From a virus, in the IMG/VR virus record IMGVR_UViG_3300035698_021428: a stretch of 49,956 nt of DNA. One strand, written 5' to 3'. Made by a program: the position numbers and the translations under genes. Below are positions 11,322 to 45,577 of the stretch, piece by piece. The notes beneath the pieces are model-generated. The model had not been told where the DNA came from. It made no database searches and worked only from the letters and a program-made list of their open reading frames with translations. Within the stretch, counting starts at the first letter, position 1; each line of letters starts with the position of its first letter.

Positions 11322-11336
11322 TTTGAAAGGAAATAT

Positions 11337-11648: not shown

Positions 11649-11672
11649 TCAAATACTTGAAAGGAAAAACAA

Positions 11673-12300
11673 ATGAGAATCGAGAAACAAGCAAAAGGCG
11701 TTAGACTACTCATGAACGACGAGGCTAAGAACCGGAGGTTGGTTCATCAATGCTTGCGTTGAAGCATCAGAAGCCGCTGGCTTCAATGAAATACTGCTTC
11801 CGCTCATTGAGCCAGAAAGTATCTATGAAGAAAAAGCGGGCACTGAGATTCTTAATCAAATGTACACCTTCAAAGACAAGGCAGGAAGAAACCTCTGTCT
11901 AAGACCCGAAGGTACTGCTACTGTCCAACTTGTTGCGCAGAAAATGCGGAACATGAAAGATGTGAAGCTATGGTATGAAACTCGTTGTTGGCGATACGAG
12001 CAGCCGCAGGCTGGGAGATACCGAGAATTCACTCAGTTCGGCGTAGAGTGGCTGAACCCCCGAAACCCTTCAGAGGCCCGAGAAAGTCTAGAAACGCTCG
12101 CCAGAGCGATTGTAGAGCGGCTGGGAGTTGATTACGAGTGGAACGGAACTGCCAAACGAGGATTGGCGTACTATATTGAAGATGGTTTTGAACTAAGCGT
12201 TCCGTCGCTTGTCGCTCAGAAGCAGGTGATTGGCGGTGGGGCTTATACTGAAGGCATCGGATTCGCCGTTGGCGTAGATCGTATTGCGTTGGCAATGTGA
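11673..12300 (+). pseudogene. minimal histidyl-tRNA synthetase-like catalytic core (~209 codons) with an apparent +1 frameshift near 11742; lacks the anticodon-binding domain
   Basis: Frame 0: MRIEKQAKGVRLLMNDEAKNRRLV (HisRS N-terminal GMNDY-like) ending at TGA; frame +1 continues FINACVEASEAAGFNEILLPLIEPESIYEEKAGTEILNQMYTFKDKAGRNLCLRPEGTA (motif 2), RYREFTQFG, GGGAYTEGIGFAVGVDRIAL (motif 3); junction in GGTTGGTT repeat. Confidence 0.6.
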
Positions 12301-12374
12301 AAGGCATCCCGTGAAGGTGCGAATCTTTTCGGGATTTTAGACGATATGCTCTCTGCCTACAATAGGAGATTTTC

Positions 12375-12608
12375 ATGCCAGAGCTAACTGAAAAACGAAA
12401 ACGAATACTTGCCCTTGTTGAAACAATAACAGACGAACAAGCAATAGAATTGGTTTCTGAAGAAGAACTTGTTCCTAAGCTTCCTGTATTTCTACCTGCA
12501 AAAATAAGCAAAGAAAAGCTTCTCGAATTAGCTTTGGATATTAGAAAAACATGGCAGCAAAAAAGATCGTTGAAAAAGACGAGGATCTTAAGTGATCGAA
12601 GAATTTAA
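12375..12608 (+). CDS. hypothetical protein (77 aa)
   Basis: SD aggag 7 nt upstream. Confidence 0.5.
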   Translation: MPELTEKRKRILALVETITDEQAIELVSEEELVPKLPVFLPAKISKEKLLELALDIRKTWQQKRSLKKTRILSDRRI

Positions 12609-12783
12609 GCTGTGCAAAGATTGCGGACGAAAAATAGCATACAAAGACGGAACTCCGATGGAGGGAGATTTTTGTACTGATGTCTGCGAATGGCATTACA
12701 ATGTTCCCCAGGAACAAAAAGATAAAATCAAAGAAATGCTTAAGAAAATAAAAGAAGAAGACAACAGAGAGAGCAGGTTCTAA
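12592..12783 (+). CDS. small zinc-ribbon protein (63 aa)
   Basis: CKDCGRK...CTDVCEWH Cys pairs. Confidence 0.45.
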   Translation: MIEEFKLCKDCGRKIAYKDGTPMEGDFCTDVCEWHYNVPQEQKDKIKEMLKKIKEEDNRESRF

Positions 12784-12788
12784 CCAGG

Positions 12789-13070
12789 ATGACGACAAAG
12801 AGACCTCTTACGACTCGGGAGAAGAATAGGGCTTTAGCTTCTTTATGTAAGAAAAAAGGATGCAAAGACTGCGGGTCTATGAAAAACCTGACTTTTCATC
12901 ACAAAGATCCAAGTCAAAAAATCATGAACATCAGCGACGGGGTGAGAAAAATGGGGGAATCTCGTTTTAGAAAAGAAATAAAGAAATGCGAAGTAGTATG
13001 TCGGGAGTGTCATGATAGGCTTCATGCTTTTGGGACTAGGTTGAATATATCAGTTAAGAGCATAACATGA
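12789..13070 (+). CDS. HNH endonuclease (93 aa)
   Basis: CKDCGS...LTFHHKDPSQ...CRECHDRLH. Confidence 0.7.
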   Translation: MTTKRPLTTREKNRALASLCKKKGCKDCGSMKNLTFHHKDPSQKIMNISDGVRKMGESRFRKEIKKCEVVCRECHDRLHAFGTRLNISVKSIT

Positions 13071-13279
13071 CTGAAAATGAGTTAAAATACGGCAAAAAAT
13101 TAAACAGACTTCTTCATAAAAAAGCAATGGGATATGAGGGCTCTATGATTTTTTCTGAAGGAGTATTATACGGATGGAAGAATGCAGGTTTAATAACTGC
13201 TGCTGAAAGCAGTAGGCTTGTCAAGGCATTTTGTACTGAAAATGATGAAATCGATATGACTTACGAATATGGAAGATAA
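13067..13279 (+). CDS. hypothetical protein (70 aa)
   Basis: ORF; TAA stop overlaps the 5' end of the tRNA. Confidence 0.4.
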   Translation: MTENELKYGKKLNRLLHKKAMGYEGSMIFSEGVLYGWKNAGLITAAESSRLVKAFCTENDEIDMTYEYGR

Positions 13280-13355
13280 TCCCGAACGGTGACGGGCACT
13301 ACTTGGAAAGTAGTTGGAGGTTAATAGCCTTGCGGTTCGATCCCGCTGTCTTCCT
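13271..13355 (+). tRNA. tRNA-Ser (GGA), type II
   Basis: Acceptor ggaagat/gtcttcc; D-stem cccg/cggg; anticodon stem actac/gtagt with loop ttGGAaa; variable arm tggaggttaatagcctt (gagg/cctt stem); T-arm ttcgatc loop. Confidence 0.7.
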
Positions 13356-13358
13356 TTT

Positions 13359-13751
13359 ATGAACGAAGAAGAAAAAGAAAAACAAGAGTTGTTAGAAATA
13401 CTCAGAAGTAGCATGAAAGATATAGAGGATAGAAAGGCCTATGTCAAAGCCAATATAGATAAGTTTAGGCTACCTGAACTTGAATATGTAGAGCATGAGG
13501 ATTTACCTGGTATGTATTGGGAAGTATGCGCAATCCCGGTAGATTCCGATCCTCTTAATAAATATGAAGGTCGAGAAGGTAAGCCTTATATTCGTCTTGA
13601 GTGGGGCTGGGATGCGGGTATGTCTGAAGAAGATTTAGCCAAGATGTCTGATGATAGCCCCAGAGGAAAAGAATGGGTGTATTTGGATCTTAGATCGGTT
13701 AAAGGATTGAGAGATAAGCTGACAAAACTTATAGATAAATACGGCGAATAA
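13359..13751 (+). CDS. hypothetical acidic protein (130 aa)
   Basis: Internal ATG after the tRNA; the listed start at 13314 is inside the tRNA. Confidence 0.45.
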   Translation: MNEEEKEKQELLEILRSSMKDIEDRKAYVKANIDKFRLPELEYVEHEDLPGMYWEVCAIPVDSDPLNKYEGREGKPYIRLEWGWDAGMSEEDLAKMSDDSPRGKEWVYLDLRSVKGLRDKLTKLIDKYGE

Positions 13752-13780
13752 ATGATGACACCAGATGAAGCAATATTAAC

Positions 13781-13865
13781 GGAAAGTAATCCAGAACGGT
13801 GACTGGCGCTCATTGCTAATGAGTTGGAGGTTAATAGCCTTGGAGTTCAACCCTCCTGCTTTCCT
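13781..13865 (+). tRNA. tRNA-Ser (GCT), type II
   Basis: Acceptor ggaaagt/gctttcc; D-stem ccag/ctgg; anticodon stem gctca/tgagt with loop ttGCTaa; variable arm identical to the other Ser tRNAs; T-loop ttcaacc. Confidence 0.65.
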
Positions 13866-13882
13866 TTTAGATAGGAATAAAA

Positions 13883-14059
13883 ATGGAATACGGTGCAGTT
13901 GAACGAAATAAAAACGGTAACGATCTTGTTGCAATCTCTGTAATCGTAGATGAAACCCAGGCGTATGAATTAAAGACTATACCTGAGTACAATGAACTCC
14001 TCAAGCAGGGTAATCTTGCCAAAAAGTGCAAAAATAAAAGCAACTGGATAAAAAAGTGA
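13883..14059 (+). CDS. hypothetical small protein (58 aa)
   Basis: ORF between two tRNAs. Confidence 0.3.
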   Translation: MEYGAVERNKNGNDLVAISVIVDETQAYELKTIPEYNELLKQGNLAKKCKNKSNWIKK

Positions 14060-14065
14060 GTAATT

Positions 14066-14149
14066 GGAAGAGCTTCCGATGGAGCGGTAGTTTGTTTTGA
14101 AAACAAATGTGGTGTAAAAGCCTTGCAGGTTCGAGTCCTGTCTCATCCG
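14066..14149 (+). tRNA. tRNA-Ser (TGA)-like, type II; acceptor A-A mismatch and irregular D-arm (possibly degenerate)
   Basis: Acceptor ggaagag/ctcatcc (6/7); anticodon stem tttgt/acaaa with loop ttTGAaa; long variable arm; T-arm gcagg-ttcgagt-cctgt. Confidence 0.45.
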
Positions 14150-14155
14150 TTTATT

Positions 14156-28564: not shown

Positions 28565-28831
28565 TATATTACTTCCTGTAAGTTACAGAAGCCTAGCTGA
28601 ATACCGCCTCGAATAGGGGTTGTAGACAGTTTTTATTGGCGTGGAATAGTAGGTAGATGCCTTTTGGCTCGCCGATACATCTGAATCACTAGTAATAGCT
28701 AGCTTATTTTCAATATGGCTAGCAGGTGAATCAAATTCGACTAAACTTGTCGAACCATGAATCGTCGAACAGGGCTTGCGGCGGAGCCGCTGTTCGTATA
28801 CAAACCGACGCCGCAACAGGAGTGCGAAAGC

Positions 28832-30064
28832 ATGCGACTCAATAAGCTCAGTACGAGCATGACAATCATTGGAATGCTGTCTGCTGCATCTGCCTTTGCG
28901 CAGGATGGTGCCCAGGTCACGAATAGCGAGGACCATCAACGTATGATGTCATCTGAAATAATGAATGACGCAGTATCCCGCAGCGGTACACAATCTGGTC
29001 ATAATGGAAACGGATTCTTTTTCTCAGATCCCGATAGAGACTTCACCCTTAACATCGATGGACAGCTTCAGTTTCGCTACTATGCGAACTTTACTGACAT
29101 GGGAAAAACGGACACAACAACTGGTTTTGAGACGGCTCGAACAAAATTGAGATTTAGCGGCGATGTCAACACCTTCGATTATACAGTTGAAGGTGTTTTT
29201 GCTCCGTCAGGCGGCGGGTTTATGCTGCAAGACGCATTCTTCGGTCACTCTCTAGGTAGCAATGCCAACGTTCAGGTTGGTCAGTTTACGCTACCATTCA
29301 TGCGAGAACAGAACGTTGACAGTAGATATCAGCTTGCTGTTGAACGATCAGTTACCGATGCCGTATTTAATCAGGGCAGAGGCCAGGGTTTGCAGTTGAC
29401 GTTTACTCCTGTGGATATGGATAATGTTCGCTTTACAGCGGCATTCAGCGATGGGTTTAGCACGGCTAACACAGCGTACACATCTTCAATGGAAGCTGAT
29501 TACGCAATTACTGGTCGTTTAGATTGGCTCGCCGCAGGCGAATGGTCTCAGTTCGACGACTTTACTTCTCAACAAGATGAAGATTTTGGTTTCCTTGTAG
29601 GCCTTGCTGGTCACCTGCAGGAAGGCGGCGAAACTGGCGGAACTATGGACACTAAAATGTTCAGTTATACTGCAGATGCTAGCGTTGAGAATGGAGGGTT
29701 CAGTGCCTTTGTTTCAGGCGTTACTCGTTCTACCGAAACTACGGCAACTGAGTTCGATGATTTCGGGCTGGTCGCTCAAAGCGGTTTTAGGGTTACTGAA
29801 AAAGATGAACTATTCGCTCGATGGGATGCTGTCTACGCTGATAGCGATCGTGGTCTTACGAATGATGAGTTCAACTATCTGACCGCTGGCTACAATAGGT
29901 ATCTTGCTGGACACTCAGCTAAGTTCACAGCCGATGTTGTTTATGCTGTTGATGATACTGCTGGTATCGGAAGTCTGACCTCATCCCTTGGCGGACTTGG
30001 AATAATGAGCAGCATGGAAAGCGAAGATGTAGCCTTACGAGTACAGCTACAGCTTCTTTTCTGA
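28832..30064 (+). CDS. outer-membrane beta-barrel (porin-like) protein
   Basis: Signal peptide MRLNKLSTSMTIIGMLSAASAFAQD; alternating amphipathic strands; C-terminal ...LQLQLLF aromatic terminus. Confidence 0.6.
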   Translation: MRLNKLSTSMTIIGMLSAASAFAQDGAQVTNSEDHQRMMSSEIMNDAVSRSGTQSGHNGNGFFFSDPDRDFTLNIDGQLQFRYYANFTDMGKTDTTTGFETARTKLRFSGDVNTFDYTVEGVFAPSGGGFMLQDAFFGHSLGSNANVQVGQFTLPFMREQNVDSRYQLAVERSVTDAVFNQGRGQGLQLTFTPVDMDNVRFTAAFSDGFSTANTAYTSSMEADYAITGRLDWLAAGEWSQFDDFTSQQDEDFGFLVGLAGHLQEGGETGGTMDTKMFSYTADASVENGGFSAFVSGVTRSTETTATEFDDFGLVAQSGFRVTEKDELFARWDAVYADSDRGLTNDEFNYLTAGYNRYLAGHSAKFTADVVYAVDDTAGIGSLTSSLGGLGIMSSMESEDVALRVQLQLLF

Positions 30065-30094
30065 TCTGATAGCGACATCTAAATCGTATTTGAG

Positions 30095-30131
30095 CGACGG
30101 GCTGCACGGATTGCGGCTCGTCGTTTCTTTT
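30095..30131 (+). terminator. imperfect GC hairpin followed by a T-run
   Basis: cgacgggctgc...gcggctcgtcg followed by tttctttt. Confidence 0.4.
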
Positions 30132-30197: not shown

Positions 30198-30446
30198 ATG
30201 CCTTACGATCCTCGACATCATTCTGAAGGCGGTAATAGGTCTACGACCAATGACGATCTTCAGGCACTAACTGGAGAATACAGAGTTGTTCTGGTAGACA
30301 CTTTCGATGGTAGCGATTGTGTTATCGGGAATTATAAAGACCTTGACGAAGCTACTAAAATAGCTGATAAAAAAGGCGGGCAAATGACTATTGTATATGT
30401 CTATGATAGCGCAGGAAAGATAGTATATAGCGCAGGTAGTTTTTAA
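30198..30446 (+). CDS. hypothetical protein (82 aa)
   Basis: SD aaaggaaa. Confidence 0.45.
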   Translation: MPYDPRHHSEGGNRSTTNDDLQALTGEYRVVLVDTFDGSDCVIGNYKDLDEATKIADKKGGQMTIVYVYDSAGKIVYSAGSF

Positions 30447-30700
30447 TGTTTTCAAATAGCTTGATTCGTATTCGTCATTTACAATTAAGCGAAATTCGCG
30501 CCCGTCTCATTCGTACTCGAAAGTTACTCACTCTATCTGATTCTCCAAAGACAAACAAAGAAATCATGACACAAATGTTTCTTAACCAACAGATTATGGC
30601 CGAGATGTTCGAAGGGCTTCTTCCTGAGCTTCCTGCCTCGTCAAACAACGAAGATATCACCGAGCAATCGGAATCTTTTAAGGAAGTTATTCAGGCCTAA
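30446..30700 (+). CDS. hypothetical protein (84 aa)
   Basis: ORF, coupled. Confidence 0.4.
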   Translation: MFSNSLIRIRHLQLSEIRARLIRTRKLLTLSDSPKTNKEIMTQMFLNQQIMAEMFEGLLPELPASSNNEDITEQSESFKEVIQA

Positions 30701-30722
30701 AGACAAAAGTACAGGAGTAGTT

Positions 30723-30977
30723 ATGAATAGCGATAAAAAGAATATGCCAACAAATATGGCATATCGAGATGTAGACTGGTCTATTGTTTATGAAGTAGAG
30801 AAAATTTGCACGGTTAGCGAAACTATTGTTATCAATTTTATCAACGGCAAAAGTTTTCGTGTTGCGCTACCAGGGGTTTTAATGAAGGCTATGATTCAAC
30901 ATGGTGTAGATAAAGCCGAAAAACTCTTCATTGAACAAGACCTTGATCGGGATGATAAAGAGCACGGGCTTTACTAG
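30723..30977 (+). CDS. hypothetical protein (84 aa)
   Basis: SD aggag. Confidence 0.45.
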   Translation: MNSDKKNMPTNMAYRDVDWSIVYEVEKICTVSETIVINFINGKSFRVALPGVLMKAMIQHGVDKAEKLFIEQDLDRDDKEHGLY

Positions 30978-31079: not shown

Positions 31080-32729
31080 ATGGCAACCAAACTTGGAAAA
31101 GGCGAGTATCCCAGCGATCATTCGCCAGAAGACTTTAAATGCTTTGGCCCTCCTGCTCAGGAAGACGGTCAGTTTGACGGCATGATGATGGCTGACATGG
31201 GCTGCTTCAAGCAAGATGGTACAGATTCCAACAAATTCTACCATGGCGCAGTTGTTCAATCCAAAAAAGATGATAGCTGGTATGCCTACTATGAATGGGG
31301 CAGAACTGGGAAAGGTTCTTCTGATAAGCAATTCGTTTGTTGTTCGTCGAAAGAAGAAGCTGAACAAGTATTCTGCAAGCAGATGCACTCCAAAAATGAC
31401 AAGCGAGGCGAATGGGTCAAGATAGGCAGTAAAGACATTCTAAGAGCGAAGACAGGCAAAGACTGCTACCTTATCCGTCCGCTCGCAAAGCGATCTCATG
31501 GCCTTCCAGACGCTCAGACAATCGTCCATGACGATAGCGGCAAAGCTGGCAGCGCCGTCGCTAAGAAAACAACCAAAAAGACCGGAAAGAAAACCAGCAA
31601 AAAGATTGCTAAGAAAAAATCAAACGTTGATCCAAAGACTCTTAGTCTTATGAAGGATATGAACGTTGCAGCGGTTGAATTTACTCGCTCGCAGGTTGAT
31701 AGCGATGCAGTCCCAACTCAAGGCGTTATCGATGAAGGCAGAGATGTTCTTATCGAAGCGGAAAAAAGAGTTAAGAAAATTGGATCAAAGCTTGAAGAAC
31801 AAATTAGCGATAGAGACCTTCGAGATCTAACGTATCATCTCTATTCTCGAATCGGGAAGCCAAAGCCTCTCAATACGCTTGAATCTGCCTGGATTCTTTC
31901 TCAAGACAACATCATGCGTTGGCGAATGGACCTTGATACATTTGAGCAGGCATTATATGCTCTTGACCTAGGCATTGGCAGCGATACTCAGAATACCTTT
32001 GATCCGTTCAATGGCATGAATATTGAGATGATTCATCTCGACCCGACTAAAACGGCTGAAGGTCAATTTATTCACAATTGGATGCCTGGCGCAACGAAAA
32101 ACGTCCACGGGCACGTTGGCGACATGAGTATTGTCAACGCATGGGGCGTTCGTCAAACTGATTTTGCACCAAAATTTGAAGCAACTGCTGCAAAGATTGG
32201 TAATCGCAATTTCACCCCATCTGACAAACCTATCAAGCAGCCCCGAAAACGATCTGATATCTCGCCAGAAATGGCTAAACTATTCGATCAAGCAAATGTC
32301 AATCTCTTATTCCATGGAACAAGATCTGTCAATGTTCCTGGCATTCTTCGCACAGGGCTAAGGCTCCCCAGAGAGCTTGTTGGAGTTGTCCTTACTGGCG
32401 CAATGTTTGGACCCGGTATCTATTGGGCCGATGATTGGAAAAAATCAGACGGTTACACTTCTCGACCAGGAACTTATTGGTCAAGAGGCGGGGGACAGGT
32501 CAAAGGTCGCAAGGCTTTTATGTTTGTTGCCAATGTTGCTCTTGGCAATCCTCATATTGCTCGCGGTCCTCAAGGATATACTGCTCCGCCGAAAGGTTGC
32601 GATTGTGTTGCAGGTCTTGCTAATAAGAGCAGCGTAGCCAACAACGAATGGATTGTTTACGACAGTATGCAAAATTCTCTTACATATCTTATTGAATACG
32701 AAGTTTCAGGCAGCAGCCGTCGCTGGTAA
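31080..32729 (+). CDS. poly/mono(ADP-ribose) polymerase-like protein: WGR domain, Lys-rich linker, helical regulatory region, PARP catalytic domain (549 aa)
   Basis: WGR YYEWGRTGKGSSDKQ; catalytic H-Y-E: LFHGTRSVNVPGILRTGLR (H-G-T), GPGIYWADD (Tyr), NEWIVYDSMQNSLTYLIEY (Glu), matching PARP1 LWHGSR / GKGIYFAD / YNEYIVYD. Confidence 0.8.
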   Translation: MATKLGKGEYPSDHSPEDFKCFGPPAQEDGQFDGMMMADMGCFKQDGTDSNKFYHGAVVQSKKDDSWYAYYEWGRTGKGSSDKQFVCCSSKEEAEQVFCKQMHSKNDKRGEWVKIGSKDILRAKTGKDCYLIRPLAKRSHGLPDAQTIVHDDSGKAGSAVAKKTTKKTGKKTSKKIAKKKSNVDPKTLSLMKDMNVAAVEFTRSQVDSDAVPTQGVIDEGRDVLIEAEKRVKKIGSKLEEQISDRDLRDLTYHLYSRIGKPKPLNTLESAWILSQDNIMRWRMDLDTFEQALYALDLGIGSDTQNTFDPFNGMNIEMIHLDPTKTAEGQFIHNWMPGATKNVHGHVGDMSIVNAWGVRQTDFAPKFEATAAKIGNRNFTPSDKPIKQPRKRSDISPEMAKLFDQANVNLLFHGTRSVNVPGILRTGLRLPRELVGVVLTGAMFGPGIYWADDWKKSDGYTSRPGTYWSRGGGQVKGRKAFMFVANVALGNPHIARGPQGYTAPPKGCDCVAGLANKSSVANNEWIVYDSMQNSLTYLIEYEVSGSSRRW

Positions 32730-32743: not shown

Positions 32744-34927
32744 ATGCAAACTATTATTCGTCAAAGTCTTTCTGAATCAGAACTCCTTGATATGGCTAGA
32801 CAAGGTTGCACAGAAGACGCTATTCAAGATGATGGTAAAAAATTAACTCATTATCAAAATTCTGGCACCAATTATGCAGAGTCTCTTGGATTAAATCCTA
32901 AACGATATGAAATCGTTGCAAATGTAATCTATCCATCAAGAAACAGTAGAAATTATTTCTTCGGTCATCATAACACTCAAGAAATACCTGATAATGCAAA
33001 ATTGTTCTTAAAAGCTTCTTACAGCCGAGAACACTATAATGATAAATCAAAAGAAACAGTTCACAGATCTAAACTTTTGTTGAAAAACTTTTGTTTCAAG
33101 CATATCCAGCGACCACGGCATGACGGGTATAACTACGTTAGTCTAGACAAACAAAAATTTATTGCATGCGGAACCATTGAAATCGATGGCAAAGATATAC
33201 TCCTTCAAGGCGATTTTTCATTCTTCGTTGAAGCATTCGGCGTAACTCTAACCAAAGAACTTAAGCTTGACTGGGGCCAAGACAGTTCTCCAATGTTCGA
33301 TGATCTCCCCGCAACTATTTCCTGTATTAGTTATCTAAACGCTTGCTCTGGTCCCTATGGCTACTATGAAGAAAAACGGGATAGAAATAATTCTCAGTTC
33401 AATTTTGATTCCAGTGGCATATATGCCCTTGTTAGTAATTTCGGGTCTGACAAAACTATTATCAGCAATTTTCTTCATGGAATTCTTGCTGCAGGAATCG
33501 TTCCTCAAGCTATAGAGCCCAAAGGAATCTCCAAGATCTATAATAAAATCAGTGAGTATGCCGAATCATTGATGAAGACAGACCCGTATGCGGCATGTTG
33601 TTATCGACAGATTGCTAGGGAAGCAAAACGAACAATCAATAGCGTTAAGGTATCAGTTGTCTATAATGAACTTTTCGCTGGCGTTGACTCGGCAGAAACT
33701 CTCAAGTCTGTTCTTGAACCGTTTGAAGAATCGATGAGCGACCCAAGCAAATACAATGCGTTTGAGAATGCTCTTTCTGGTCTAGGAGCATTCAAGGATC
33801 GTCGTCGTAAAGCTCTAAAAAGTCAAGGGAACAGGGCTCTAACGAAAATCATGGAAGAGAAAGAATCTCTGACCTTTGATTTGAAAAAACACAAACGTCT
33901 TAATAAAGCTATTGAAGCTGGTGACATTCCCATCGGAACATTTTTCCGCAAAAAAGAACAGTTCTTTATTCTCAATGACAACTGGGATCTTTGGGAAAAG
34001 ATGCTCGCGCTCGATTACGATGTTACTGTCAAATTAGCTCAGGAAGTTTCTCGCAGGTCAACCTACGAGAAGGATCTGATGTCCTACTTCTATTTCGTAT
34101 TGGTCGATCTGCCAGCATACCTCAAGAAGCATACAGGATACAAATGGTCATGTATGCCAAGACTGGTTGACAGCGAAAGAGAACTCGAAGCGCCCAAAGT
34201 TGATGAGACAGGAACCGCTCGTTCTCGCTCTGCTCTAACGCCGATCGTTGACAACGATGCTAAAACCGTAACGGTTCCCTATGCGTCTCTCGCGATCGCC
34301 GGACGACAGACAACATATTGCTACAGTCATACCTATATGGCGATTCGCAAAGGTCTCATGTTCAATGGCAACGTCTCCACAGAAGATCTGGGAGAAAAGC
34401 TTAATGGTCGAGACGACTATGGGCTCATGTTCTATACATTGACTGGATCTTTCCAAGGTAGAGGATACCCGACATTTCTTATTATCTTCGAACGTCATTC
34501 TAAAAATGGCAGTAAAGATACAACTGTCCACTTTCATCGGGTTCATCCCAGCCGTTCCAAAGATGGCGACTATAACCCTATTCATAACTGGATTCGGGTC
34601 TGTTATAATTGGATGGCTGGCAATATCAACGCCAAGCGAATTAGGGCGCAGCAAGGCGATTTGTTCTTTGTTTCGACAGACAAGACTCCTGAGTTCGATA
34701 CTCGCGTTATGCAGTATGACAATCACAGGTTTGATAAGCCTGTTGGTTTCTCTCCATACGAAGGCAAGGATAAGAACATCCTTGGCTATATGAAGCTTGA
34801 CGAACCACTGACGCTAAACCATCACGAGCATGATAACGAGAATGTTCCTGCTGGGATCTTCGAGGTACGGCAATGCCGTAGCTGGGAAGCCAACCCCAAG
34901 GGCATTTGGACGATTAATATCGATTGA
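32744..34927 (+). CDS. hypothetical protein (727 aa)
   Basis: Long ORF 15 nt downstream of the PARP gene; no motif recognised. Confidence 0.5.
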   Translation: MQTIIRQSLSESELLDMARQGCTEDAIQDDGKKLTHYQNSGTNYAESLGLNPKRYEIVANVIYPSRNSRNYFFGHHNTQEIPDNAKLFLKASYSREHYNDKSKETVHRSKLLLKNFCFKHIQRPRHDGYNYVSLDKQKFIACGTIEIDGKDILLQGDFSFFVEAFGVTLTKELKLDWGQDSSPMFDDLPATISCISYLNACSGPYGYYEEKRDRNNSQFNFDSSGIYALVSNFGSDKTIISNFLHGILAAGIVPQAIEPKGISKIYNKISEYAESLMKTDPYAACCYRQIAREAKRTINSVKVSVVYNELFAGVDSAETLKSVLEPFEESMSDPSKYNAFENALSGLGAFKDRRRKALKSQGNRALTKIMEEKESLTFDLKKHKRLNKAIEAGDIPIGTFFRKKEQFFILNDNWDLWEKMLALDYDVTVKLAQEVSRRSTYEKDLMSYFYFVLVDLPAYLKKHTGYKWSCMPRLVDSERELEAPKVDETGTARSRSALTPIVDNDAKTVTVPYASLAIAGRQTTYCYSHTYMAIRKGLMFNGNVSTEDLGEKLNGRDDYGLMFYTLTGSFQGRGYPTFLIIFERHSKNGSKDTTVHFHRVHPSRSKDGDYNPIHNWIRVCYNWMAGNINAKRIRAQQGDLFFVSTDKTPEFDTRVMQYDNHRFDKPVGFSPYEGKDKNILGYMKLDEPLTLNHHEHDNENVPAGIFEVRQCRSWEANPKGIWTINID

Positions 34928-35386: not shown

Positions 35387-35513
35387 TTTCAAATAAATAA
35401 TTCCTTTCTGAAATTAGCCCCTGGTCTCCGGATCAGGGGTTTTCTTATAATTTAATAACAAATTCAATCTAATAATCTAAAGGGAGACATGGTATTAAAG
35501 AGTAATACAAGGT

Positions 35514-38157
35514 ATGAGTATTCCACAAAATGCAGATCTTTCCATAGTATCTCAAGCTGAAGCCGATCGCCACAAGATGGTTACAGATAATAATGAAGTT
35601 GGAGGAACAAGGGCATTTGTTTCAAATCCTGATTCAAATTTCTCATTTTCTCATCCGAAGGTTCTTCAGCTTGGAAATACCACATCAAATAAAGACGCTG
35701 TTCTTGCGTATCGAATTCTAGTAGTAGAATCAGGCGGGAAAGCAAAGACCCCAGATTTTAATTGGCATTCTGGTATATTTTCTACAGGAGAAAATCTTCG
35801 GGTAACTCATAACGGATCATATTATTACCAGTTTAGAACAATGTGGGATGTTGGCACAAGCGGAAGCTTACCAGAAGGAACAAGTATTATTGAGCTTCTT
35901 GAAATGTATTCCACTGCTGAATCAGCAATTGCTTCAACGCAAAAAAATTGCTTTTTATATTCAAAAAAGCAGCGGCGTAAATCACTTAGTCTGCAAGCTT
36001 GCTGATCCTAATATAGGATACGAAGATCCCACAGAACTATTGCAAAATGGTGTTTGGTATGATATAAGAATGAAATATAAGCCAGAAACAGGAAGCTCAG
36101 CAGATGGAATTTTGCTTGTAGAACAAAAACTTGCGACAGCTAGCTCATGGACTACTTTGATAAATGTAACAAATCATACTCAGAATGCTGATATAATGTG
36201 GGTAGAATATCAGCACAAGGCCTCAAGCGGATTGTCTCCAGGCATAACATCTTCTAAAACCTGGATTGCTTCTAGTTATCAAAGATTAGATAGTTTTGAG
36301 GCTGACGATTATGAATATAATAGATTTAGAACGTCAACGTGCCTGGACGTATCTTCGTCTATAGCTAAAATTAGAGTTCACTGCGATGATGAAACAATTG
36401 ATACATCTTCTGGAGGGTTTATTGTTCAATACGGAACAAATTCGACTTTATCATCAGGTGTTATTGATTCATCCTATACAGCTTTTAGCGCTAGAACCCA
36501 TGACTGCGCTACCGTATCTCTAACTTCATTATCTGCTGATACAAGATATTATTACAGGTTAAAATTTCAAGATGACGAAAGTTCTCCTACCGATACTTAT
36601 ACTGTGCCAGAAATACGGTCATTCAAAACTCTAGCAACTACTACTGGCGGAACTCGAAAAATACTAATTGGAGGATGTAAGGGGCACGCAGGATGGAGAG
36701 GCGGCAATGCTGCTTTCGATCACTTAATAGCTGCTGAAGGCACTCCTGACATGATAATATTCAATGGAGACATGATATATGATACAGACCTAACGCAATT
36801 GGGTTCAGGAAATAGCGACTATGAACTATGGGACTTAACTGAGGATAATTATTCATCAGCTTATAGACTTTCATTTGGAGAATATGATTTCGCAAAAATA
36901 CTTTCTGAATGCGCTTTCTTTGGGATGTGCGAAGATCATGAATTCTTTAATTCATGTGATGGTAATATGCGAGGGCAAGCAGTCAATATGGGATTAGCAG
37001 TTGATAATGCTGGAACAGCATATCCTACTTCTCATATGAATACAACATATCTAAACGGAGGCGGCGCGCCAGTTACAGCCGATGGTATATTCACCATAGC
37101 CACTGATGTTATGGCGTCATGGTGGGGAAACGGAACAATAAACGCAGCCGACTCTGGTTCAGGACGAGATTATTATCGTTCGTTTGAGCATGGTAATGTA
37201 TTAGTTCTTATGTTAGATACCAGAACACGAAGCACTGCAACTAGCCTAATTACATCAGCACAAGAGACATGGATTCAAACAACTATAGCAGCTTCGGACG
37301 CCAAATATATTGTTATTAGTAGCCCCGCTTCATGGGGAGATTATCTTATCAATATAAGTCCAGCCGAGGCATGGGGAAGCAATGCAAATCTCAGAGCGCA
37401 ACGTGCTAGTATATTTAACTGGATAAAAAACAATGCTTCTGATAAAGTAGTTTATCTTATAGGCGGAGATAGGCATACTCCTTATGTTGCGTATCCTAGC
37501 GATTTAACCGGACCAGATGGTCCTCTCAAAAGAATTGCAATGGCATCGCCATTTAACCAAGATAACAATTTCAACACAAGCGCTATTACCGCAATGGCAT
37601 CTGACCCATCAGTCGTATCAGTTATAAGTACCGATGATTATACTGGCTTATCAATGGTCAGAACTTCTGGTTTATTAGTAGAAATTGACGAAGCAACGGA
37701 TACCGTTCGATTAGTTATGTATGATGATAATGGAAATAAATTGATAGATGAAAGCGACTCCTATGCATTATCAACCGAAACCAGTAATGAAATATCAAGG
37801 GCCATATCTATAACAACGGCTCCTACGCACATACCTTCTCCGACCTTTTCTCTAGCAGGAACAAGCTATGCAACAAGATTTATTGATCCGAACATAGAAG
37901 CTATGATAACAAAGCAAAATCTAAATGCGCCTGTTAGCGTTTCCTTTGAATCAGTAACTAATGATTATGAAATCCGCTATACCACAAATAGCAATAGAAA
38001 TCCAACAAGCAAGAGTATTCTATATTCTGGTCCTTTGAGCATAAGTAGAAACTTGACTGGCGTTGATAATACTGTTGTTAAAGCCAGGATATTCCACAAA
38101 AATAATCCTGGAATTCATAGCCGTATAACTAAGTTAGAATTCAACGTAATTATGTGA
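35514..38157 (+). CDS. PhoD-like metallophosphoesterase with FN3-like N-terminal region; two frames joined by an apparent 1-nt indel in an A7 tract (~35941-35950)
   Basis: ORF 35514-36005 and ORF 35848-38157 overlap in different frames; removing one A from caaaaaaat joins ...AIASTQK to IAFYIQKSSGVNHLVCKLADP...; downstream TRYYYRLKFQDDESSPTDTYTVPEIRSFKT (FN3/PhoD N-domain-like), GDMIYD, GGDRH. Confidence 0.5.
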
Positions 38158-38916
38158 TCATAGTCCGGTTTTTGGATTTGGAGATTTTCCTTTTAGCCGT
38201 TTGTAGCATGGTAAATATTTATGGACTTCAATGTTTTCCCAGTTATTTCGAGAGTTCCAAAAATGGACTCCGTATGTTCCTGATTTGATATTGAACTGGT
38301 TATCAATAATATTCCCAATGTCATGCGGATGAAATGTTAGCACAGAATCCATAGCTATGTTTCCAAAATATTTTTGAACCGTATCTGACCATCGGTAAGG
38401 GCCGGTGGTCCATAAGCCCAATAATATTTGCGCAGCTTTCTGTCTTTTTTCTGGCATATCATTCTTACTGCAATAGCCATCTTTATACCTGAGTCTATCG
38501 AATGATTCTCTGATGTTATCAAAGTGTTGTTTAATAAGTGGGTGACCGGGAACTATCCCTATAACATCATTATTCAGGCACTTTTTGTTTGAATAACCAA
38601 GTTGTTTTGCGAAATAATATTCTCTGTTAGCAACAAGTTTATCAATGGGTTTTACCATCATGATATCTACATCTATGTAGACTCCTCCGTATTTTTCTAG
38701 GATCTCATATCGTAAAATATCTGCTTTGAATTGAGGATATTCGAAATAATCATAAATATCAGGTATGCGATTTTTAGGTATATTACTTTCATCCCACCAT
38801 TTGTATTCCCAGTCAGGATGCAATTCTTTCAAGTGTTGAATAAAAAACTTGAATGGCTCCGGTATATGACGTTTGCCAATCCATATCTGATGAATAATTT
38901 TAGGTATCTCTGACAT
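38158..38916 (-). CDS. glycosyltransferase, GT32-like (DXD sugar-binding region)
   Basis: IHQIWIGKRHIPEPF...YIDVDI DXD motif. Confidence 0.65.
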   Translation of the reverse strand: MSEIPKIIHQIWIGKRHIPEPFKFFIQHLKELHPDWEYKWWDESNIPKNRIPDIYDYFEYPQFKADILRYEILEKYGGVYIDVDIMMVKPIDKLVANREYYFAKQLGYSNKKCLNNDVIGIVPGHPLIKQHFDNIRESFDRLRYKDGYCSKNDMPEKRQKAAQILLGLWTTGPYRWSDTVQKYFGNIAMDSVLTFHPHDIGNIIDNQFNIKSGTYGVHFWNSRNNWENIEVHKYLPCYKRLKGKSPNPKTGL

Positions 38917-39628
38917 AACAGGGTAGTTCCTTATAGAGATCGTAAAGTTCTTCTTCTGGTTTTAAATAATGCATTAGATGGAAAGCATAAGACTCTTTAG
39001 GTATGTCTTGTATTCTCTTTATATTCTTTGTTCTTTTAGAACATAAAATCATCTTGTAACCTGGGGCGGCTATACTATTGTACTCATCTTGATAAAGACG
39101 GTTTAGCATTAGTACGCCTGTTGTTTTAAGACCAAGACGCCATTCTGCATTTAGTCGAGCTTTGCGATCTTTTATTTCTCTCCAATGAAAATCAGGATCG
39201 CCTTCTCGACACTCATCAAATGACCGACGCATCTCTTTCCATATCGAAGAAAAAATACGATGTTTCGATTTAACTGCCATAAAGCAGTTGCTAACACATC
39301 TTTTTGTTTGCGAACTATCTTGCTTGCATAACATGCATTTTGTGTTCCATACCAATGAATCAAATGGTTTCAAAGAAAACAGGTCAAAATCAAAATATAT
39401 ACCTCCGTACTTCTCTAGAATACCATAACGTAACATATCTGTTTTGAATATAGGATTGTCAAAATGGTTATAGATGTCTTGGTGCGGCGTCTTGGGGCAG
39501 TTTTTATCGTCCCACAAGGTATATGACCAATCTTCGTGCATCTCTCTTGTATGCTTCGAAAAATACTGAAAAGGTTCTGGTATATTTTCTCCCAACCAGA
39601 TTTGGTGCAAATTTCGTTCTATCTTCAT
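38900..39628 (-). CDS. glycosyltransferase, GT32-like paralogue
   Basis: LHQIWLGENIPEPF...GGIYFDFD; tandem paralogue of the previous gene. Confidence 0.6.
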   Translation of the reverse strand: MKIERNLHQIWLGENIPEPFQYFSKHTREMHEDWSYTLWDDKNCPKTPHQDIYNHFDNPIFKTDMLRYGILEKYGGIYFDFDLFSLKPFDSLVWNTKCMLCKQDSSQTKRCVSNCFMAVKSKHRIFSSIWKEMRRSFDECREGDPDFHWREIKDRKARLNAEWRLGLKTTGVLMLNRLYQDEYNSIAAPGYKMILCSKRTKNIKRIQDIPKESYAFHLMHYLKPEEELYDLYKELPCYVRDT

Positions 39629-40894: not shown

Positions 40895-41428
40895 ATGGAC
40901 TGGCTTACAGCAGATCTGCATTTGGGTCATGCGAACATTATCAAATTTTGCAAACGACCATTTCGTAATGTCGGAGAAATGGATCAAGCTATAATTAATA
41001 ACATCAACGAGAAGGTTGGCAAAGATGATCGTCTAATTGTTCTCGGAGATTTTTCTATGGGCAAAGAAAGGCCTCAATATATCAGGAGAATCAACTGCGA
41101 TAATATTTGGTTGATTACAGGAAATCACGACAAACGGCCAGGCACAAGCGATGGGTTCACAAGAGTAGAAGTCTATCACGAAGAAAAGTTTCAACTATCA
41201 GACGGAACCCATAAAGATATTGTTCTTTTTCATTATCCGATTTTAGAATGGAACAAATGGCACAGAGGTTCGTGGCACCTGTTCGGACACGTTCATCGAG
41301 GACGAAACAAGCAATACAAAGAAGAACTCGCGCTTGATGTCGGAGTCGATAATCATAACTACGAACCCTTGTGTATCGCTGATATTGAAAAAATTATGTC
41401 CAAGAAAAAAGTGGAAAAGCCCTTATGA
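40895..41428 (+). CDS. calcineurin-like metallophosphoesterase (177 aa)
   Basis: DLHLGH...LGDF...GNHD...GHVHRG motif series. Confidence 0.7.
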   Translation: MDWLTADLHLGHANIIKFCKRPFRNVGEMDQAIINNINEKVGKDDRLIVLGDFSMGKERPQYIRRINCDNIWLITGNHDKRPGTSDGFTRVEVYHEEKFQLSDGTHKDIVLFHYPILEWNKWHRGSWHLFGHVHRGRNKQYKEELALDVGVDNHNYEPLCIADIEKIMSKKKVEKPL

Positions 41429-41549: not shown

Positions 41550-42167
41550 ATGACTGTAGTCCCCCTGCTTGATATCGCTTTGACCGATTTTTGTATAGAA
41601 CGCCTCTTCGATCCCAAGAAGGCTGGTACAACTATTCTGTCTTATACTCCATTAGAGTTTACGATGGAGATCCAGGTCCATTGGGGTGAAGCTTTTTGGC
41701 GTGAGCAAGAAGGCTATGCCCCATTTTGCAAGTTGGTTTTCATGAGAAACTGGATCGATTCTGTTCGAGCAGGGGCCGTCCCTATTACTCGCGAAAATCA
41801 ACATCTTGTCAAAAGCGGATATCTAGCAAGAACCGGCAAAGAATTACCTGTACTTACGCAGTGGATTGAGTGTTCCGAGGCTCCAAGAGCAGAGTATCTT
41901 GTCCTCGTATTGTATTCAAAAGAACAAATTGAACAGGAATCCAAAGACCAAGGCCAAGAAATTGAATTTGAAGCTGATTGGGGAGTTGTTGCTGTTTTAG
42001 GGCAGGTTTCAGATTCAGAAGAGCCTATGGCTCCTATAACAATGATGAGGAATGCTCTGGGGACGGCTGAGGGCGGCTCTGGATACCCTTTAGACAGAGA
42101 AGCGTATCAGAGATCGGCTGATTTCTGGGGCTCTCACGCTGTCGTAAAAACGCCACTGACCACTTAG
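41550..42167 (+). CDS. hypothetical protein (205 aa)
   Basis: ORF. Confidence 0.45.
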   Translation: MTVVPLLDIALTDFCIERLFDPKKAGTTILSYTPLEFTMEIQVHWGEAFWREQEGYAPFCKLVFMRNWIDSVRAGAVPITRENQHLVKSGYLARTGKELPVLTQWIECSEAPRAEYLVLVLYSKEQIEQESKDQGQEIEFEADWGVVAVLGQVSDSEEPMAPITMMRNALGTAEGGSGYPLDREAYQRSADFWGSHAVVKTPLTT

Positions 42168-42648: not shown

Positions 42649-42720
42649 GCTTCGTTAGCTCAATGGTAGAGCAATAGTTTCTAAAACTACAGGTTGTCGG
42701 TTCGAGTCCGACACGAGGCA
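42649..42720 (+). tRNA. tRNA with CUA anticodon (amber suppressor), discriminator A
   Basis: Acceptor gcttcgt/acgaggc; D-arm gctc-aatggta-gagc; anticodon stem atagt/actac with loop ttCTAaa (U33, A37, A38); 5-nt variable; T-arm gtcgg-ttcgagt-ccgac. Confidence 0.7.
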
Positions 42721-45317: not shown

Positions 45318-45522
45318 GAAACCAGATATGAGCAATGAACAAAAAGCAGCTTTACCATGCGTCATTTGCGAAACGAATGAAAACTTACAACCAAAATACG
45401 ACTCTAGCACTGGCGAAAAATGGGTTCATTGCGACGAATGCGGTAAGATTTCAACGCCAACGGTCGATGAACATCCTATAGATGTTTGGAATCGAGAGAA
45501 CAAAGTCTCCGTAGTTCAATAG
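45289..45522 (+). CDS. small zinc-ribbon protein (77 aa)
   Basis: CVICE...CDECGK; TAG stop overlaps the tRNA. Confidence 0.4.
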   Translation: MRPLITEPYRKPDMSNEQKAALPCVICETNENLQPKYDSSTGEKWVHCDECGKISTPTVDEHPIDVWNRENKVSVVQ

Positions 45523-45577
45523 GTAGAACGGCAGTCTCTAAAACTGTGCGTTGCAGGTTCAAGCCCTGTCGGAGACG
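45505..45577 (+). tRNA. tRNA with CUA anticodon (second amber suppressor), discriminator G
   Basis: Acceptor gtctccg/cggagac perfect; D-arm gttc-aataggta-gaac; anticodon stem gcagt/actgt (G.U) with loop ctCTAaa; T-arm gcagg-ttcaagc-cctgt. Confidence 0.7.

Follow-up and report, generated by a model that had tools for sequence, protein, structure and literature searches.

A probable PARP1/2/3-type ADP-ribosyltransferase with a lysine-rich linker in a huge-phage genome fragment

The gene at positions 31080 to 32729 of the window, i.e. of the whole 49,956-nt stretch of viral DNA analysed here (IMG/VR record IMGVR_UViG_3300035698_021428), probably specifies a functional ADP-ribosyltransferase of the PARP1/2/3 type that uses NAD+, is borne by a huge phage and is activated by nucleic acid. 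This explanation draws on sequence comparisons and on a predicted structure. Taken on its own, the gene is a credible phage PARP of an already recognised kind, whose product is probably active. It belongs to a large family that is common to huge phages and Planctomycetota and hence not phage-only. More than 800 homologues were retrieved at E<=1e-5, which puts the match to the family far above chance, and the best 120 of these are full length. PARP homologues are found on viral contigs of 0.2-0.6 Mb, and an exact-sequence look-up of the window protein in an assembly index gave no match.

Gene structure and domain architecture

The open reading frame starts with ATG and specifies a product of 549 amino acids, in agreement with the gene call of a preceding sequence-only reading of the same DNA. 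All motifs quoted in that reading could be located in the protein, namely YYEWGRTGKG (aa 70-79; nt 31287-31316), the poly-Lys tract KKTTKKTGKKTSKKIAKKKSN (aa 162-182; nt 31563-31625), LFHGTRS (aa 410-416), GPGIYWADD (aa 444-452) and NEWIVYD (aa 522-528). The gene and its predicted domains are as follows, with the supporting evidence in brackets:

31080..32729, forward strand: complete gene for a WGR / Lys-linker / helical-domain / ART (PARP-type) ADP-ribosyltransferase (ORF, Pfam, homologues, AlphaFold, Foldseek)
31080..31535, forward strand: WGR domain, aa ~1-152, with W73-G74-R75 and an N-terminal extension (Pfam, PARP1 alignment, pLDDT)
31536..31628, forward strand: Lys-rich disordered linker, aa 153-183, with poly-Lys at aa 162-182 (pLDDT, composition of homologues)
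31629..32114, forward strand: helical regulatory (HD or PARP_reg-like) domain, aa ~184-345 (predicted helices, profile, Foldseek)
32115..32708, forward strand: ART (PARP catalytic) domain, aa ~346-543 (Pfam, PARP1 residue alignment, family invariance)

The WGR domain, which had been proposed from its signature motif, is recognised by Pfam over aa 45-108 (2.8e-7; 31 bits versus a cutoff of 22). Residues 48-106 align to the WGR domain of PARP1, with W73-G74-R75 on W589-G590-R591, and the AlphaFold model reaches a pLDDT of 80-96 over this region. The N-terminal extension of about 35 aa is family-specific (DFxCFGPPAxxDGxF...GCFxQD); a Cys/His metal site at this place (C21, C42, C129, H55) was considered and set aside, as C21 and C129 are not invariant.

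The Pfam check suggested by the earlier reading succeeded for WGR and PARP (8.7e-21), but PARP_reg had no match in the window protein. The helical domain between WGR and ART is recognised at the level of fold and profile only: helices are predicted at aa 185-205, 214-234, 245-257, 278-296 and 326-337, and the family profile aligns over aa ~214-355 to the helical domain of PARP1 with a domain i-Evalue of 0.0067. The AlphaFold (AF2) model as a whole has a mean pLDDT of 84.4 and a pTM of 0.83. Its best Foldseek matches in the PDB are WGR-HD-ART chains of PARP1 and PARP2 on DNA breaks (E 1e-21 to 7.7e-23), with TM scores of 0.64-0.70 normalised on the target; about 410 columns align to the HD+ART catalytic fragment of PARP1 at a TM of 0.70. 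Sensing of nucleic acids through the WGR domain is a reasonable inference by analogy, because the order WGR / helical domain / ART is the layout of the break-activated PARP1/2/3 group.

The Lys tract exists as described in the earlier reading, and it lies in a predicted disordered segment (pLDDT <50 at aa 153-180). Its composition is conserved: in 111 homologues the linker has a median length of 32 aa and a Lys content of 24%, versus 7.5% over the remaining protein, and its net charge is at least +4 in all but one of them (110/111). The linker uses Lys and not Arg even in Planctomycetota genes of 60-67% GC. The earlier reading had proposed the tract as a plausible site of automodification or DNA binding; its preference for Lys would suit a segment that binds DNA like a histone tail, or else a function as acceptor or regulator that is specific to Lys.

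With the C-terminal module of PARP1 and PARP2 (PDB 4dqy, 7s6h, 8g0h, 6x0l), the window PARP shares the domain order, the predicted fold, H-Y-E, the nicotinamide pocket and the WGR motif. However, it is only 17-19% identical to human PARP1 and PARP2 and lacks their zinc fingers and BRCT domain, whereas it adds the 31-aa Lys linker between the WGR and helical domains, the N-terminal extension and a Gly-rich insertion. It further differs in being phage-encoded, in occurring without HPF1 or PARG, and in the replacement of Tyr986 by Asn.

Catalytic site and nature of the product

Pfam PARP matches aa 345-517 at 8.7e-21 (74.8 bits versus a cutoff of 26.7). The earlier reading had seen the H-Y-E signature of PARP1 in this region and had staked that claim on the placement of the triad by a domain search; the triad falls inside the PARP catalytic fold. 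H412 (nt 32313-32315), Y448 (nt 32421-32423) and E523 (nt 32646-32648) align to H862, Y896 and E988 of PARP1. HMMER comparison with PARP1 chains puts H412-G413 on ‘WHGSR’, Y448 on ‘GIYFAD’ and K455, S456 and Y459 on ‘SKSANY’, and the family profile brings ‘NNEWIVFD’ onto ‘YNEYIVYD’ at the E988 position. The nicotinamide-pocket residues are G413, which follows the His, and then K455, S456 and Y459. In an alignment of 39 family members with a mean column identity of ~48%, the triad is invariant, as are K455, S456, Y459 and, in the WGR domain, R75.

A capacity for poly-ADP-ribosylation had also been deduced from the conserved Glu. This claim stands in part: the Glu is present and is required for elongation, but alone it does not establish polymer synthesis. 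PARP3 and PARP4 have kept H-Y-E and yet are mono-transferases, and PARP4 is named ‘Protein mono-ADP-ribosyltransferase’ by its PDB depositors, so the triad of the window PARP is no guarantee of polymerase activity. It is conceivable, if somewhat doubtful, that the enzyme resembles PARP3 and PARP4 in placing a single ADP-ribose on proteins when bound to nucleic acid, without forming a polymer. Several features would fit. The position of PARP1 Tyr986, a residue implicated in polymer elongation and branching, is taken by Asn521 next to the catalytic Glu, and Y459 is followed by a family-specific Gly-rich insertion of 12 residues, in which G472 and R477 are invariant and which could alter acceptor specificity. 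The erasers linked to the gene in relatives are moreover ARH and Macro proteins and no canonical PARG; both families include mono-ADP-ribose hydrolases, although ARH3 and several macrodomains degrade poly(ADP-ribose) too. On the other side, the donor loop GLRLPRELVGVVLTGAMFGPG is close to the PARP1 loop in length, with a 2-residue gap in the alignment, and the best matches in sequence and fold are PARP1 and PARP2, not PARP3 or PARP4. In the preferred PARP1/2/3-type enzyme, the Glu and a donor loop of PARP1 length would together allow chains to be elongated.

Genomic setting and relatives

The window is a fragment of a huge-phage genome. It carries 12 tRNAs, a tmRNA (129.6 bits) and a class II aminoacyl-tRNA synthetase. 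Its closest public record is LR756511.1, a sequence of 595 kb designated ‘uncultured phage’, and a megablast search of phage records with 20 kb of window sequence gave no match. The surroundings of the PARP gene comprise the following features:

30092..30126, forward strand: terminator-like hairpin with a 15-bp stem, after a porin gene (consensus scan only)
30198..30977, forward strand: three small ORFs of 82, 84 and 84 aa upstream of PARP, without family (ORF list, no Pfam match)
32744..34927, forward strand: 727-aa orphan gene of a conserved family with a His-rich C-terminal half, starting 15 nt past the PARP stop codon
34994..35386, forward strand: 130-aa ORF without Pfam or PHROG match, with homologues in relatives
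35416..35441, forward strand: terminator-like hairpin with an 11-bp stem and a T-run (consensus scan only)

The two hairpins likely mark the upstream and the downstream limit of the PARP transcription unit, respectively; they come from a consensus scan in which the number of sites was not above that in shuffled sequence. The three small ORFs are probably co-transcribed with PARP, and the first and third also lie upstream of it in the closest relatives (L001, L002 and L006). A homologue of the 130-aa ORF is found directly 3' of PARP with 72% identity in L001, L002, L003 and L006 and with 41% in L008. The most persistent neighbour of PARP, in 16-17 loci, is a calcineurin-like phosphoesterase (40895-41428 in the window). 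Its candidacy as a PAR- or ADP-ribose-processing enzyme was rejected, as it is a member of a family widespread in phages (phrog_547, 2.3e-48), lies at a variable distance and matches no PDB sequence; its persistence is more simply explained by conserved gene order.

The gene neighbourhood of PARP differs between phage lineages. An ARH gene (PF03747, 7e-51) is located downstream of PARP in eight phage loci and in LR756511.1, at a distance of 3-9 kb in sister phage lineages, and an AbrB-like protein, termed X, is encoded downstream in ~13 phage loci. In the scanned ORFs of the window, Pfam found no match for Macro, PARG, ADP_ribosyl_GH (ARH), NADAR or NUDIX, and tblastn of the window with the linked ARH and Macro proteins was equally empty, in line with the initial impression that no PARG or macrodomain gene lies nearby. 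Nor did the window yield RT (RVT_1), SWIM, HEAT/ARM or X genes (Pfam on ORFs; tblastn with three retron proteins of locus L243). ARH, X, Macro and retron genes were not detected by limited, pattern-based scans in the closest relative, a near-complete genome of 498 kb, and neither this genome nor its near relatives were among the at most 80 loci listed by a pattern-seeded search of IMG/VR with two ARH profiles and an X profile. The absence of an eraser appears specific to the lineage of the window, as other lineages carry ARH or Macro. Since no hydrolase or regulator gene is present in the 50 kb, the enzyme would be either a solo writer or one whose partners are encoded elsewhere in the ~0.5-Mb genome, and with ARH, X, Macro and retron missing from the window, its role in this lineage may differ from that in relatives with partners.

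WGR-PARPs of phages have already been annotated and reviewed (PMC7824862, PMC9503650), so that the kind as such is known. The protein QQV91759.1 of Klebsiella phage vB_KpM_FBKp34 is annotated with WGR, PARP_reg and PARP, and BBA65562.1 of Xanthomonas jumbo phage XacN1 is a cited example of a jumbo-phage PARP (PMC7824862). Both have H-Y-E and, behind the second Tyr, the Gly-rich loop in common with the window PARP, but they are only 24% identical to it and shorter (423-428 versus 549 aa), and they have no counterpart of its N-terminal extension, of its Lys linker or of an insertion of ~20 aa that precedes the ART core. Compared with these cultured-phage proteins, the window PARP represents a distinct subfamily, which is new; the pairing with ARH and the AbrB-like protein in sister phages and the retron-Macro setting in Planctomycetota also seem to be new. 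The literature searched contained no experimental work on any phage PARP. The bacterial WGR-PARPs of Herpetosiphon aurantiacus and Clostridioides difficile CD160 are active in vitro, HaPARP needs DNA, and in many bacterial WGR-PARPs the regulatory domain is missed by Pfam but helical in models (PMC8120803, PMC5966428). According to the published descriptions, they have the same compact WGR / (helical) / ART organization as the window PARP, but theirs occur together with PARG in cellular genomes. The bacterial survey covered six phyla, with Planctomycetes not among them (PMC8120803). Alt, ModA and ModB of phage T4 are likewise encoded by a phage and use NAD+ to modify host proteins as the phage takes over the cell, but they are R-S-E (cholera-toxin-type) mono-transferases without a WGR or helical regulatory domain (PMC8120803), whereas the window PARP lacks the R-S-E motif and combines H-Y-E (diphtheria-toxin/PARP-type) with a putative nucleic-acid-sensing module.

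The Planctomycetota homologues are 44-50% identical to the window PARP and reside in a type XIII retron cassette with the order HEAT-ARM_XIII, SWIM_XIII, RT_XIII, PARP, Macro; the Macro gene was found in nine Planctomycetota loci. The sole non-planctomycete bacterial match of the genome scan is Bacillus sp. M6-12 (29-31% identity). Type XIII retrons (Mx162 / Mx65 class) consist of an RT, a SWIM/DEDE protein and a WGR-like HEAT/ARM protein (Mestre et al. 2020, PMC7736814). PARP is not mentioned in that paper, and no description of a retron-PARP-Macro link was found in the literature searched. The cassettes include a WGR-like accessory protein and have the PARP homologue directly after HEAT-ARM_XIII, SWIM_XIII and RT_XIII; in the window, by contrast, genes for RT, SWIM, HEAT/ARM and Macro proteins are all missing.

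These cassettes raise the question whether the phage could carry, in the window gene, a copy of an effector of abortive infection or immunity that serves superinfection exclusion or interference with a host retron-PARP and not the phage's own DNA metabolism. The occurrence of such similar homologues beside Macro in retron cassettes speaks for this, as does the pairing in other phage lineages with a hydrolase and an AbrB-like protein, whose fold is characteristic of antitoxins. We nevertheless regard it as improbable: all 200 bootstrap trees place the window PARP outside the retron-linked Planctomycetota clade, this clade is nested among viral sequences, the window is devoid of retron, Macro and X genes, its GC content is ~41% versus 51-70% in the Planctomycetota PARP loci, and no PADLOC model matches the protein. 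The nested position of the Planctomycetota clade points, if anything, to a transfer from phage to bacterium.

PARP1-3 can ADP-ribosylate phosphorylated DNA ends in vitro, and nucleic acid might be the main substrate of the window PARP, with ADP-ribose capping DNA or RNA ends and, for example, shielding phage ends or blocking host exonucleases and repair. Its nucleic-acid-binding parts are the WGR domain and the basic tail only, and its cellular homologues adjoin a retron, the maker of a branched RNA-DNA product. But protein targets would suit this architecture just as well, and the DNA-targeting ARTs of phage conflict, DarT and pierisin-like enzymes, belong to other ART families (PMC9503650), which leaves end capping as the main activity quite improbable.

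A vault connection is suggested by a second gene of the window (23791-26127; MVP_shoulder at 5.3e-25, Vault_3 and Vault repeat domains), an MVP homologue 5 kb upstream of PARP, as vertebrate vaults house PARP4 (PMC12280208); the window PARP might then be an enzymatic passenger of a phage vault-like particle. The distribution of both genes argues strongly against this. A scan of IMG/VR with an MVP alignment identified 35 MVP contigs, and only one of the 26 PARP contigs carries both genes; the closest relative has no MVP within 10 kb of PARP, and LR756511.1 contains PARP without an MVP match, while LR756500/501 show the reverse. The architecture is that of PARP1 with WGR and PARP as the only domains found, and not that of PARP4 (BRCT, VIT, vWA, MVP-interaction domain), and the vault hypothesis was rejected as highly improbable. 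It is just as improbable that the protein is without catalytic activity and serves only to bind nucleic acid or as a structural component, because all NAD+-binding and catalytic residues are invariant in a family of ~48% mean column identity, which is the signature of selection on catalysis.

Proposed mode of action and implications

The biological role that we infer for the nucleic-acid-activated ADP-ribosyltransferase follows from homology. The WGR domain would dock on a nucleic-acid end or nick, and the basic linker would add non-specific affinity for polyanions in the manner of the basic N-terminal region of PARP2. Binding would relieve autoinhibition by the helical domain and admit NAD+ to the active site, whereupon the enzyme would attach ADP-ribose to itself and to DNA-bound proteins in its vicinity. 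Possible triggers in the infected cell are DNA ends from the breakdown of the host chromosome, from phage replication and packaging, or from host nucleases. Proteins associated with the nucleoid or with phage DNA would then be modified solely at places with such ends, by an enzyme that works alone or with partners from other parts of the genome.

The settings in sister phages (AbrB-like protein and ARH) and in Planctomycetota (retron and Macro) fit a nucleic-acid-gated, reversible ADP-ribosylation module in phage-host conflict. A bolder scenario, which we consider unlikely to hold in full, is that the whole family is an ancient module of phage-bacterium conflict gated by nucleic-acid ends, kept by phages either solo or with an AbrB-like regulator and ARH, and taken up once by Planctomycetota, where it was wired together with Macro to a type XIII retron whose msDNA, or damage to it, is the WGR ligand.

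PARP1-type enzymes have a central place in eukaryotic DNA-damage signalling, and little beyond the sequence is known of their relatives in prokaryotes and viruses. If the bolder scenario is true, bacteria and their viruses would employ PARP1-style break sensing coupled to ADP-ribose signalling, and the window gene would provide a minimal version amenable to study, with a WGR domain, a histone-tail-like Lys linker and no zinc fingers; its product might also act on DNA ends besides proteins. With a WGR domain and a Lys-rich tail as the only additions to a catalytic module like that of PARP1, this large and well-conserved subfamily would offer a compact model for the opening of the helical gate by nucleic acid. 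The distribution of the gene, solo, with ARH and the AbrB-like protein, or with retron and Macro, leads to testable hypotheses on ADP-ribosylation in phage infection and bacterial immunity, and the retron-PARP-Macro association, if real, would represent a new effector type in retron biology.

Domain architecture and catalytic residues of the window PARP

The PARP gene of the window (31080-32729, plus strand) starts with ATG and was called as an open reading frame of 549 codons. All motifs quoted in the sequence-only reading, which took the protein for a catalytically intact WGR-PARP with a poly-Lys linker, are found in its translation:

aa 70-79, YYEWGRTGKG
aa 162-182, Lys tract
aa 410-416, LFHGTRS
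aa 444-452, GPGIYWADD
aa 522-528, NEWIVYD

Pfam recognizes the PARP catalytic domain (8.7e-21) and the WGR domain (2.8e-7), both above the curated cutoffs, as that reading had anticipated, but the PARP_reg domain that it also named has no Pfam match in the window PARP. PARP1 is the top phmmer match among PDB sequences, and the alignment places H412-G413 on 'HGS', Y448 on 'GIYFAD' and K455-S456...Y459 on 'KSANY'. Four collinear matches with PARP1 were obtained with a profile of 39 family members: one in the WGR domain, one in the helical domain (profile positions 214-355), one in the ART core and a last one in the segment 'NNEWIVFD', which is aligned to 'YNEYIVYD' of PARP1 and thereby brings E523 onto E988. 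The residues H412, Y448 and E523, together with G413, K455, S456, Y459 and R75, are invariant in the family alignment, and the catalytic and NAD+-pocket residues of the window PARP are intact. The AlphaFold model computed from the family alignment has a mean pLDDT of 84.4 and a single long disordered stretch (aa 153-180). The top Foldseek ranks are occupied by break-bound WGR-HD-ART chains of PARP1 and PARP2 (E 7.7e-23 to 1e-20; TM 0.64-0.70 on target), and the alignment with catalytic fragments comprising the helical and ART domains extends over about 410 columns. The H-Y-E residues thus fall within a PARP catalytic fold, which confirms the initial observation.

Polymer formation is plausible from the sequence, given the glutamate and a donor loop of PARP1 length. 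It is not established, because H-Y-E enzymes can also act as mono-transferases, the position of PARP1 Tyr986 is occupied by Asn521, and the protein has a Gly-rich segment inserted, in which G472 and R477 are invariant.

A distinct subfamily of phages and Planctomycetota

Phage PARPs, including WGR-containing ones, have already been annotated and discussed (PMC7824862, PMC9503650) and bacterial WGR-PARPs have been characterized, so this kind of protein is known as such. The window PARP falls into a large and distinct subfamily that has structural additions of its own and a notable distribution. It shares only 24% identity with each of two annotated PARPs of cultured phages, those of Klebsiella phage FBKp34 (QQV91759.1; WGR, PARP_reg and PARP) and Xanthomonas jumbo phage XacN1 (BBA65562.1), and both lack its N-terminal extension of about 35 aa, its Lys linker and some 20 aa that are inserted ahead of its ART core. 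A search of 50,697 phage records gave a single full-length match, the 595-kb 'uncultured phage' LR756511.1 (50% identity). The family comprises more than 800 members in large protein collections; the best 120 of them are all full length with 47-71% identity, and many are located on contigs of 0.2-0.6 Mb. After clustering at 50%, some 65 representatives reach E<1e-30, and beyond them there is a steep fall to proteins that share the ART domain alone. IMG/VR contributes 26 family loci on viral contigs of up to 572 kb.

The basic linker is conserved in composition and variable in sequence. Across 111 homologues it has a median length of 32 aa and a Lys content of 24%, compared with 7.5% in the rest of the protein, and all but one (110/111) have a net linker charge of +4 or more. 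Planctomycetota linkers have a median of nine Lys and one Arg even in genes with a GC content of 60-67%, and this preference for Lys over Arg suggests that Lys itself is under selection. One homologue of 663 aa (P0087) has, besides the internal Lys linker, an additional histone H1-like N-terminal tail of about 140 aa that is rich in Lys, Ala and Pro.

When the family profile was run against GTDB genomes, one for each species, it retrieved 39 cellular loci, 36 of which belong to Planctomycetota (Pirellulaceae, Gemmataceae, Planctomycetaceae and Isosphaeraceae). The gene occurs in the isolate Neorhodopirellula pilleata Pla100 as well as on a complete 7.8-Mb chromosome and on a 4.0-Mb contig. The planctomycete matches share 39-56% identity with the window PARP, most of them being full length at 44-50%, and their loci (GC 51-70%) contain none of the phage neighbours. 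We calculated a neighbour-joining tree (Poisson distances, 200 bootstraps) of 52 full-length family sequences and the two cultured-phage PARPs as outgroups (54 in total). All 23 chromosomal sequences from planctomycetes group in a single clade (197/200) that never includes the window PARP (0/200); its sister group contains viral sequences, again without the window PARP (184/200), which pairs with its 498-kb closest relative L006 in all replicates (200/200). With the bacterial clade nested within the viral diversity, huge phages and Planctomycetota seem to have exchanged the gene only once. The direction of transfer is tentative, given the distance of the outgroups (24-25% identity) and the simplicity of the tree method. 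L242 and L245, two contigs with a length of about 107 kb and a GC content of 60%, were binned as 'Candidatus Woesearchaeota archaeon'; their PARP genes cluster with viral sequences and they are probably mis-binned phage contigs.

Genomic setting of the window

The window represents one fragment of a huge-phage genome. Its genes are short and mostly located on one strand, and it encodes 12 tRNAs, two of them with a CUA anticodon. The features apart from the PARP gene are:

649-1803, plus: class II (Asp/Lys/Asn-type) aminoacyl-tRNA synthetase
2026-14150, plus: ten-tRNA cluster (Arg, Cys, Gly x2, Thr x2, His, Gln, Ser x2)
7887-8705, minus: type IV pilin-like protein (N_methyl motif)
18579-19538, plus: PHO4-like transporter, weak match (phosphate acquisition)
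20070-21881, plus: PAS-PAS-HisKA-HATPase sensor histidine kinase
23791-26127, plus: major vault protein (MVP) homologue, 778 aa (MVP_shoulder 5.3e-25, Vault_3, Vault repeat)
26303-26658, plus: tmRNA (Rfam RF00023, 129.6 bits; tag peptide ANSNPLRIAA)
28757-30064, plus: phosphate-selective porin O/P homologue (phosphate acquisition)
35848-38157, plus: PhoD-like phosphatase, 769 aa, with C-terminal Fn3-associated and CHB_HEX domains (phosphate acquisition)
38158-39628, minus: two DXD glycosyltransferases
40895-41428, plus: small calcineurin-like phosphoesterase (phrog_547, 2.3e-48)
41550-42167, plus: DUF3228 protein (1.4e-62)
42649-42720 and 45505-45577, plus: two CUA-anticodon tRNAs (amber suppressors; ARAGORN label 'Pyl')
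45580-46179, plus: HD_4 (RelA/SpoT-type) hydrolase domain protein

The small ORFs include a His-tRNA-synthetase-like one and, near the histidine kinase, two response-regulator receiver domains that complete a phage-encoded two-component system. TAG still serves as the stop codon in 9 of the 42 ORFs checked, and any stop-codon recoding would thus be regional or stage-specific. Two strong terminator-like hairpins (30092-30126 and 35416-35441; consensus scan, no statistical enrichment) flank a same-strand run in which the PARP gene is preceded by three small ORFs and followed by a 727-aa gene, beginning 15 nt past the PARP stop codon, and a 130-aa gene. The porin gene keeps its place roughly 3 kb 5' of the PARP gene in 9-10 related loci.

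The vault protein was considered as a partner since vertebrate vaults contain PARP4 (PMC12280208). However, only one IMG/VR contig carries both genes (26 with PARP, 35 with MVP), and the architecture of the window PARP is of the PARP1 type and not of the PARP4 type. The huge phages LR756500.1 and LR756501.1 possess MVP homologues and no PARP match, LR756511 the PARP gene and no MVP match; the two genes are independent, unlinked cargo. Phage MVPs were reported in a 2023 preprint (10.1101/2023.11.10.566534), and the tmRNA of the window lies directly 3' of its MVP gene. The most persistent same-strand neighbour is the calcineurin-like phosphoesterase, which is found at a distance of 1-9 kb in 16 of 27 non-redundant phage loci. 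It may have a role in ADP-ribose or pyrophosphate processing, but it belongs to a common phage family, so that conserved gene order is the simpler and probable explanation, and we did not retain it as a partner.

The statement that no PARG or macrodomain gene is evident nearby holds for the window: Pfam detected no Macro, PARG, ARH (ADP-ribosylglycohydrolase), NADAR or Nudix domain in the ORFs of the 50 kb, and tblastn found no match to the hydrolases linked to PARP in relatives. Within the window the PARP is a solo copy without the partners seen in relatives.

Partner genes in relatives and proposed function

The most interesting results lie outside the window, namely the link of PARP and Macro to type XIII retrons and the ARH/X pairing in sister phages; both associations are those of gene neighbourhood alone. 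In Planctomycetota the PARP gene is located near the 3' end of a conserved same-strand cassette, adjoined by Macro where the latter is found. One example is L243 of N. pilleata Pla100 (NZ_SJPM01000010.1, 14-8123), where the stop codon of PARP falls within the Macro ORF as called:

14-1867: HEAT-ARM_XIII (PADLOC 3e-160)
2200-3906: SWIM_XIII (PADLOC 1e-183)
3914-5845: RT_XIII (PADLOC 2e-154; Pfam RVT_1 1.6e-22)
6001-7590: WGR-PARP
7587-8123: Macro-domain protein (Pfam 1.2e-45)

The cassette is also present in L237, L240, L244, L246, L251, L252, L257, L261, L262 and others. Across the planctomycete loci tblastn detected the RT in 21, SWIM in 18 and HEAT/ARM in 14, and Macro adjoins the PARP gene in nine (Pfam). 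The cassette corresponds to the type XIII retron described by Mestre et al. 2020 (PMC7736814), which includes a WGR-like HEAT/ARM accessory protein; PARP is not mentioned in that paper, and we found no published retron-PARP or retron-PARP/Macro link in the searchable literature.

Clustering of the ORFs within 10 kb on either side of the PARP gene revealed two recurrent downstream genes in more distant phage lineages. ARH (PF03747, 7e-51) lies 3-9 kb downstream in eight phage loci (L015:14380-15423, L016, L017, L018, L020, L025, L026 and L029) and 4 kb downstream in LR756511.1 (181249-182211). Its profile matches the MJ1187, DraG and ARH3 structures, and it forms a writer-eraser pair with PARP in this sister group of huge phages. 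The second protein, X (about 240 aa), is encoded directly downstream of PARP in about 13 phage loci and in some loci of Planctomycetota (L020:11808-12656, L025:11581-12294, L029:12922-13653, L254:7647-8360 and others). It has a conserved N-terminal domain with a G.MFTA.D motif, and its C-terminal segment (D.RG.L.IP..L...G..PG..V) looks, by eye, like an AbrB/MazE-type DNA-binding hairpin; X is a probable DNA-binding regulator. The N-domain of X has a homologous counterpart in the first 90 or so residues of the planctomycete RT protein (L243:3914-5845). In some planctomycete loci a separate X gene, in place of the RT fusion, lies downstream of PARP, so that PARP with X has the look of an old two-gene unit. 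Neither ARH nor X is present in the window or near the PARP gene of its closest relatives, and limited scans of the collections did not find them elsewhere in the 498-kb one.

By analogy with the PARP1/2 paradigm and the published activity of the WGR-PARPs of Herpetosiphon (DNA-dependent) and C. difficile (PMC8120803, PMC5966428), the WGR domain would dock on a nucleic-acid end or nick, with the Lys linker contributing electrostatic affinity. Binding would free the helical gate, and NAD+ would be consumed to put ADP-ribose on the enzyme itself and on nearby proteins. That relatives are encoded beside erasers (ARH, Macro), beside X and beside a retron speaks for a nucleic-acid-gated, reversible modification used in phage-host conflict.
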